A stretch of 64,000 nt of DNA from Bdellovibrionales bacterium. GTDB taxonomy: Bacteria > Bdellovibrionota > Bdellovibrionia > Bdellovibrionales > UBA1609. A model generated the notes under the pieces. It was not told the origin of the DNA and made no database searches. It saw only the letters and a list, made by a program, of their open reading frames with translations. A program made the translations under genes and the position numbers. Shown in pieces: positions 55,483 to 56,048 of this stretch (its first letter is position 1; every line of letters starts with the position of its first letter). The stretch is taken from positions 411,556 through 475,555 of the forward strand of contig OZ241840.1 of the NCBI GenBank assembly GCA_965202645.1, in the 5' to 3' direction.

Positions 55483-55511
55483 TTGATTCGGTCTTTTTTT
55501 TCAATTAGAAT
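55483..55511 (+). promoter_or_regulatory. Sigma70-like promoter of the CRISPR array
   Basis: TTGATT-17 bp-TAGAAT. Predicted +1 near 55518. Confidence 0.7.
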
Positions 55512-55518
55512 CCTTAAA

Positions 55519-55551
55519 GTCTGTTTATTTACCAAGGGTTATCCAGCTGAG
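55519..55551 (+). promoter_or_regulatory. CRISPR leader with an anti-repeat that pairs with repeat 1
   Basis: GTCTGTTTATTTACCAAGGGTTATCCAGC plus a TGAG loop is an imperfect reverse complement of the adjacent repeat. Confidence 0.8.
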
Positions 55552-56048
55552 GCTGGAGACACCCGCTAAATGGTGGGTAAGCCAGACTTATGCCAAAGTC
55601 TTTTATTATTTGTTCTAGCTGGAGACACCCGCTAAATGGTGGGTAAGCCAGACAAAAGATTATATGTCGTGTTTACATCCTTAGCTGGAGACACCCGCTA
55701 AATGGTGGGTAAGCCAGACAAAAGATTATATGTCGTGTTTACATCCTTAGCTGGAGACACCCGCTAAATGGTGGGTAAGCCAGACAATTTCAACCTTAAC
55801 CCATATAACAAAGCTGCTGGAGACACCCGCTAAATGGTGGGTAAGCCAGACAGCTTCGATAAGGCTATCGATAAGGTTTTTGCTGGAGACACCCGCTAAA
55901 TGGTGGGTAAGCCAGACTAAATTGAGCGCTTGATTTATAAGATTTTGCTGGAGACACCCGCTAAATGGTGGGTAAGCCAGACTGGAATCATCTGGTGTTA
56001 TACGGCGCTTTTGCTGGAGACACCCGCTAAATGGTGGGTAAGCCAGAC
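55552..56048 (+). CRISPR. Type VI CRISPR array: 8 identical 36-nt repeats and 7 spacers (six of 30 nt, one of 29 nt)
   Basis: Repeat GCTGGAGACACCCGCTAAATGGTGGGTAAGCCAGAC at 55552, 55618, 55684, 55750, 55816, 55882, 55947 and 56013. Spacers 2 and 3 are identical. Confidence 0.98.

Follow-up and report, generated by a model that had tools for sequence, protein, structure and literature searches.

The 64,000-nucleotide stretch analyzed here (the window) carries a compact Cas13-type CRISPR locus on the forward strand. It consists of a cas13 gene, a short leader region, and a CRISPR array. The gene lies at 53042..55435 (+), encodes a protein of 797 aa, and was assigned as type VI-E-like (Cas13bt/Cas13b branch) by HEPN motifs and by profile and structure matches. 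The HEPN motifs are found near both termini of the protein, RNYFSH at residues 77-82 and RNACMH at residues 744-749. In a family alignment of 16 sequences, R77, Y79-H82, and R744 were invariant and H749 was nearly invariant. No Cas13 family was matched by the protein in Pfam and NCBIfam, and a phmmer search against the PDB sequences gave nothing at E ≤ 1. The family profile matched the Cas13bt3 structures 7vti and 8fti with an E value of about 2e-6 (2.3e-6 for 7vti). An AlphaFold model of the effector was obtained with a mean pLDDT of 83.1 and a pTM of 0.67. A Foldseek search with this model yielded 11 matches at E ≤ 0.001, all of them Cas13bt3, Cas13h1, or Cas13b, with Cas13bt3 7vti as the best match (E 7.7e-18). 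The effector family is small, with 17 relatives at E ≤ 0.001 in a search of 5.8 billion proteins. Within the class, 4 of 390 genomes carry the effector when the source genome is counted, and the other three carriers are relatives that were already known.

Several features described for type VI-E or Cas13e are present at the locus: the length of 797 aa, two RxxxxH HEPN motifs, 36-nt repeats, 29-30-nt spacers, and no adjacent cas1/cas2. According to Hu et al. (2022), Cas13e has about 800 aa and 36-nt repeats, and Cas13e1 was active with 3'-DR guides and inactive with 5'-DR guides (PMC9554183). The related locus L009 (JAPPLY010000064.1), whose effector is 54% identical to that of the window, is labeled subtype VI-E in the dataset of Migur et al. 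2026 (PMC13187072). A first-pass annotation of the DNA had proposed a 3'-DR-type effector, and this proposal is upheld by homology, that is, by the Cas13b/Cas13bt-like fold, the profile, the terminal HEPN motifs, and the relative labeled VI-E. The sequence and model comparisons thus support a Cas13b/Cas13bt-like effector of the branch with the repeat 3' of the spacer. Given the fold, the profile, the VI-E relative, and the 3'-DR guides of Cas13e1, the locus would belong to a branch whose first transcribed repeat lacks a spacer of its own.

The CRISPR array is located at 55552..56048 (+) and contains 8 repeats, each 36 nt long, and 7 spacers of 29-30 nt. It starts 116 nt past the stop codon of the 797-aa ORF on the same strand. 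All 8 repeats are identical, so that repeat 1 (55552..55587, +) has the same sequence as the other seven; it is the repeat predicted to be sequestered by the leader. In the 2.25-Mb assembly the repeat gave 8 forward and 0 reverse matches, and no second array with the same repeat was found. Comparison of the spacers with phage records gave no match. No accessory csx gene was seen adjoining the array, and no cas1/cas2 was found beside it. The genome has two Cas1 matches elsewhere, the nearer of which is part of a type II locus ~13 kb away, and the second lies on the same contig (G000:C1:1813027-1813791). The type II locus (L021, G000:C1:475000-492000) is complete, is encoded on the minus strand ~4-10 kb past the end of the window, and comprises Cas9 (1118 aa; HNH, RuvC_III, and Cas9_a), Cas1, Cas2, and a 13-repeat array with an unrelated 36-nt repeat.

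In the Cas13 array, spacer 2 and spacer 3 have one and the same sequence, and a whole repeat-spacer unit is tandemly duplicated at 55616-55747. The array region was compared with the contigs of four sequencing runs from one study. An 87-nt contig covering the duplicated unit had ~1.7-2.6 times the depth of the flanking contig in these runs, a figure derived from contigs only, and weakly suggests a genuine duplication as opposed to an error of assembly. The leader was covered in the contigs without differences, and the contigs break inside the array. Two duplicated repeat-spacer pairs were also observed in the neighboring type II array (4533-4664 and 4664-4795 of L021). A 126-aa ORF on the minus strand at 55747-56127 overlaps the Cas13 array and is almost certainly an artifact of the repeats. 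Downstream, 86 nt past the last repeat, a terminator-like hairpin was found at 56134..56152 (+) by pattern matching; two such matches were found compared with 1.6 in shuffled sequences.

Immediately upstream of the array, the leader contains an anti-repeat at 55519..55547 (+), whose sequence is a degenerate reverse complement of the repeat and sets U against G at four positions. It is connected to repeat 1 by the sequence UGAG (55548..55551, +), which forms the apical loop of the predicted fold. In the minimum-free-energy fold of the plus-strand RNA 55518-55587, the anti-repeat 55519-55547 pairs with repeat 1. The helix contains 26 pairs (12 G-C, 10 A-U, and 4 G-U), and the set of pairs listed around the TGAG loop in the first-pass annotation corresponds exactly to this structure. 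A folding energy of -30.3 kcal/mol was calculated (z -4.68), and none of 200 dinucleotide shuffles folded as well. Repeat 1 alone folds at -15.7 kcal/mol. Folding of both strands had been suggested in the annotation as a check. The minus strand of the same segment reached -23.3 kcal/mol with 0 G-U pairs and with the wobble positions lost. The plus strand is more stable than the minus strand by 7.0 kcal/mol in the window and by 16.0 kcal/mol in the related locus L011. The G-U pairs, four in the window and six in L011, exist on the plus strand only, as had been claimed for the four wobbles of the window. The leader/repeat pair was not listed by an ungapped DNA inverted-repeat search, and its coherence therefore lies at the RNA level, with bulges and wobbles. 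A search of Rfam over 55000-56800 gave no family at E ≤ 1.

The contribution of the leader was assessed by dinucleotide shuffling of the leader alone, with leader lengths of 34, 60, and 180 nt. The mean probability of a repeat base being paired with the leader was 0.715, compared with a mean of 0.144 and a maximum of 0.567 for shuffled leaders. The observed pairing was reached by 0 of 200 shuffles at 34 nt, 0 of 200 at 60 nt, and 0 of 100 at 180 nt. In a second test, modeled on PMC13187072, the repeat's own hairpin was assessed by the probability of all its pairs being open, which was compared with the values for shuffled leaders. For repeat 1 this probability was 0.999 with the 34-nt leader, a value reached by 7 of 200 shuffles, and 1.000 with the 180-nt leader, reached by 1 of 100. 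As a predicted fold, the leader-repeat hairpin is confirmed, and it wins over the fold of the repeat itself on the plus strand only.

A strong hairpin 84 nt past the cas13 stop codon might also be read as a transcription terminator or attenuator between cas13 and the array. The stem is followed by UUAUGCC and not by a U-run, the terminator scan left the hairpin unflagged, and a terminator at this position would silence the very array downstream. This reading was rejected on these grounds, and we regard it as very improbable. A second candidate role was that of a tracrRNA anti-repeat. As in type II and some type V systems, the anti-repeat of the window is an imperfect complement of the repeat with wobbles and is encoded beside the array. 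However, a tracrRNA acts in trans as an RNA of its own, pairs with every repeat, and serves Cas9 or Cas12, whereas the anti-repeat described here sits in cis at a Cas13 locus, only the 4-nt loop away from repeat 1, and would inactivate the repeat instead of enabling its processing. It does not fit the tracrRNA pattern. The candidate was rejected because the anti-repeat is contiguous with repeat 1 over a 4-nt loop, the effector is Cas13-like, and the repeat of the neighboring type II locus is unrelated.

Conservation of the hairpin was examined in DNA from four independent lineages of relatives, namely L011, L012, L009/L010 (one lineage), and L013. In L011, whose effector is 47% identical to that of the window, a hairpin of the same architecture was found, with -40.0 kcal/mol, 27 pairs, and 6 G-U pairs; the minus strand gave -24.0 kcal/mol. 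The repeats of the two loci differ at 5 of 36 positions. At four of these five positions the repeat base is paired with the leader in each locus, and every one of these four differences is compensated by a change in the leader (U-A to C-G, A-U to G-C, U-A to G-C, and A-U to G-C). The fifth position is unpaired in both. Over both loci, 19 pairs are unchanged, 2 show a change on one side, and 3 positions are paired in one locus only. The G-U pairs at repeat positions 24, 25, 26, and 30 are common to both loci. The compensation of all four paired differences argues for selection on the pairing, and the co-variation indicates that the anti-repeat is old and has tracked the repeat, and is not a fresh repeat copy. 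Selection at the RNA level had been proposed in the first-pass annotation from the wobbles; the compensated differences and the wobble positions shared with L011 now speak for it. The hairpin thus appears to be under selection, with the co-variation drawn from two complete loci.

These comparisons also bear on the view that the anti-repeat is a neutral relic, a decayed inverted copy of the repeat that was left by a rearrangement and has no function. Its appearance as a degenerate reverse complement of the repeat would agree with such an origin, as would the fact that L009 and L010 manage without an anti-repeat. A relic would, however, hardly be kept across effectors of 47% identity with four of four compensatory changes and common wobble positions. 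All 4 substitutions inside the anti-repeat stems keep the pairing in RNA, and the pair is of a kind that the ungapped search in DNA misses. On account of the compensatory changes and shared wobbles between the window and L011, the relic reading was rejected, and it can be considered extremely improbable.

In L012, which belongs to the same genus, the contig ends within a leader that aligns with the anti-repeat and is homologous as far as the contig reaches. The array of this genome (G294, 87% complete) was not found with two repeat patterns. Its cas13 homologue (206-2625 of L012) was detected as two overlapping matches in different frames, 206-1768 and 1744-2625; the split is possibly a frameshift or a sequencing error in this low-coverage contig of 2.7 kb. 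L009 and L010, the closest relatives whose array is complete, formed no such hairpin; the probability of finding the repeat's own hairpin open at all its pairs was 0.000-0.003. Among shuffled leaders, 20 to 92 of 200 attained the leader pairing of these loci at 34 and 60 nt, and 84 and 53 of 100 did so at 180 nt. At these loci (3652-3769 of L009 and 6382-6499 of L010), which are without the leader-repeat hairpin, repeat 1 is not degenerate. By eye, a sequence TTGAAA-17-TAATTT is seen near repeat 1, which would leave a leader of only ~5-10 nt; it is not called by the promoter scan. No hairpin was found in L013, a distant Cas13bt-like locus with 26% identity. The lack of the hairpin in L009 and L010 means that the feature is dispensable in the effector family. 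By these comparisons the hairpin would be ancestral to part of the family and would have been lost or replaced in another part. Searches for further family loci in metagenome contigs (by protein patterns and by repeat pattern), in viral contigs (by repeat pattern and by protein), and in plasmids (by tblastn) gave none.

A promoter-like site, TTGATT-17-TAGAAT, precedes the hairpin at 55483..55511 (+), with TTGATT at 55483-55488 and TAGAAT at 55506-55511. It has 9 of 12 matches and predicts a transcription start at ~55518. In a promoter scan of 55300-56500, 2 sites were called compared with 2.1 in shuffled sequences, and the site alone is not above chance. Similar sites were seen in L011 (TTGAAC-18-TAAAAT, ending at 5617) and L012 (TTGATA-17-TAAATT, ending at 2696). 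In these two loci as in the window, a distance of 7-9 nt separates the end of the promoter-like site from the point where pairing of the anti-repeat begins. Because this position is common to the three loci, a start at the hairpin base is plausible, and for the array transcript of the window a start at ~55518 is likewise plausible. Judged by these hexamers, the leader would have a length of ~34 nt and would be unusually short.

Stem-loops at the 5' end stabilize bacterial RNAs. In the window, L011, and L012, the predicted start precedes the first paired base by 1-3 nt, and the hairpin might serve mainly as a 5'-terminal protective stem-loop against 5'-end-dependent decay, the masking of repeat 1 being incidental. 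For this purpose any stable hairpin would suffice, yet it is repeat 1 in particular that is paired, and four of four repeat changes are followed in the leader. Furthermore, the start is a prediction, and in Porphyromonas gingivalis a hairpin of the same kind is found inside a long co-transcript (PMC13187072). We regard protection as the main role as unlikely.

A role for such hairpins in Cas13 systems has been published. Migur et al. (EMBO J 2026) showed for P. gingivalis VI-B2 that a leader-repeat hairpin keeps Cas13b from binding and processing repeat 1, and that the ecrRNA can reduce defense (PMC13187072). Leader-repeat hairpins were predicted there in VI-B, BtA, E, F, G, H, and I; for VI-E, fewer than 5 systems were present, which were too few for statistics and were inspected by hand (PMC13187072). 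The first-pass annotation had referred to published leader-repeat hairpins that block an extraneous crRNA in Cas13 systems, and such hairpins are indeed described there (PMC13187072). Its interpretation of the locus amounts to the published mechanism, and the sequence comparisons support it.

Applied to the window, the array would be transcribed on the plus strand from just upstream, either from its own promoter (~55518) or by read-through from cas13. The first ~30 nt of the leader would be the anti-repeat. On emergence of repeat 1, its 5' end would form the apical stem CCAGC/GCUGG with the leader next to it, and the helix would then grow to the 3' end of the repeat. The leader helix would thereby replace the repeat's own hairpin, the form that the Cas13 effector must recognize. 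Because of this displacement, repeat 1 would be neither bound nor cut, and no extraneous crRNA composed of a leader-derived guide and repeat 1 would arise. Cas13 would stay free for the seven crRNAs derived from the spacers (spacer n plus repeat n+1). As a whole, the explanation that a plus-strand leader hairpin masks repeat 1 and blocks the extraneous crRNA is considered probable. Within it, the transcription start and the folding in the cell are predictions, and a block of processing would be expected by analogy with P. gingivalis VI-B2.

The choice of repeat 1 was considered further in an equilibrium fold of a transcript with three repeats. Repeat 1 formed its own hairpin with a mean probability of 0.343, repeat 2 with 0.640, and repeat 3 with 0.000. 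As the repeats are identical, every one of them is a possible equilibrium partner of the single anti-repeat. Given this equilibrium pairing with later repeats, the preference for repeat 1 has to rest on proximity and synthesis order, and from adjacency and order of synthesis we infer that repeat 1 is the one captured. In P. gingivalis, capture of repeat 1 was demonstrated by probing and a pausing assay (PMC13187072). In the folds of the window, the transcript prefix ending at 55578 forms the inner stem of the repeat first, and a rearrangement is therefore needed to reach the full hairpin.

The locus shares several properties with the P. gingivalis VI-B2 system (PgiCas13b). In both cases the crRNAs are of the guide-repeat type (here by homology), and an adjacent leader pairs with the first repeat and displaces its own hairpin. 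The repeats have 36 nt in both, and the P. gingivalis spacers have 30 nt compared with 29-30 nt here (PMC13187072). The two systems differ in transcription. In P. gingivalis, 5' RACE placed the start far upstream, and the array is co-transcribed with the cas genes (PMC13187072), whereas the promoter-like hexamers in the window put the predicted start at the hairpin base and leave a leader that is almost only anti-repeat. In addition, the subtype of the window is VI-E-like, no csx gene adjoins the array, and the hairpin is here a prediction from sequence.

An extraneous crRNA that originates in the first repeat and a leader that pairs with that repeat are also known from type II-A systems (Liao et al. 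2022, as summarized in PMC13187072). Those systems differ in using Cas9, tracrRNA, and RNase III, and their hairpin reportedly also makes the first crRNA mature faster (via PMC13187072). By this precedent, the hairpin of the window might help the first real crRNA (spacer 1 plus repeat 2) to mature, beyond silencing repeat 1. In the VI-B2 system, however, no direct effect on the first crRNA was seen (PMC13187072), and the sequence of the window gives no pointer to such an effect. A boost of this kind is quite improbable, and silencing of repeat 1 remains the preferred reading.

The VI-E entries of Dataset EV1 in PMC13187072 are JACONL010000003.1, JAPPLY010000064.1, and JAPPCD010000078.1. The repeat of the window is of the same family as the repeats of these entries (GTTGGAGACACCC...GCCAGC). 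Unlike the window, L009 and L010, which are VI-E entries of that dataset, form no hairpin in the folds. The repeat motifs of the window and L011 were absent from nine supplementary files of PMC13187072 searched as text, and the hairpin of the window is therefore unlisted in those files. The locus is a clean example of a known mechanism and not a new mechanism, and, by the search of these files, an instance that is unlisted there. It differs in detail from the systems of that report by a likely dedicated promoter abutting the hairpin, by compensatory co-variation, and by the absence of the hairpin in the family's two VI-E dataset entries.

In a more specific version of the silencing model, a dedicated promoter drives the array and starts its transcript at the hairpin foot, and the whole leader acts as both silencer and 5' cap. 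The suppressed ecrRNA would then have a 30-nt anti-repeat guide that is partly complementary to the locus's own repeats. We regard this combination as fairly unlikely. If it were true, selection would include avoidance of Cas13 self-activation on its own pre-crRNA, besides Cas13 sequestration, and the sister lineage L009/L010, having lost the hairpin, may solve the problem otherwise.

The silencing of repeat 1 would leave the understanding of the mechanism unchanged and would add a very clean example to the compact, Cas13e-like branch in use for RNA-editing tools. The compensatory changes in two distant loci constitute evolutionary evidence, of a kind not mentioned in the available parts of PMC13187072. 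For anyone expressing the effector, the array orientation and repeat polarity are fixed, and a native array cloned without its leader would be expected to gain an extra, useless crRNA.

Further observations concern the surroundings of the locus. A 353-aa Rpn/YhgA-like putative transposase (Transposase_31, E 4e-16) is encoded at 51338-52399 (-), 643 nt upstream of cas13. Its position on the opposite strand upstream of cas13 is a hint that the locus may be mobile. On the other side of the array, a 456-aa ORF at 56830-58200 (+) gave no family match and contains four internal copies of a 145-nt unit, 201-234 nt apart. Stretches of ~100-130 nt at 51122-51251, upstream of the Cas13 locus, and at 58042-58165 are 83-89% identical, and similar sequences thus flank the block of transposase, cas13, and array.
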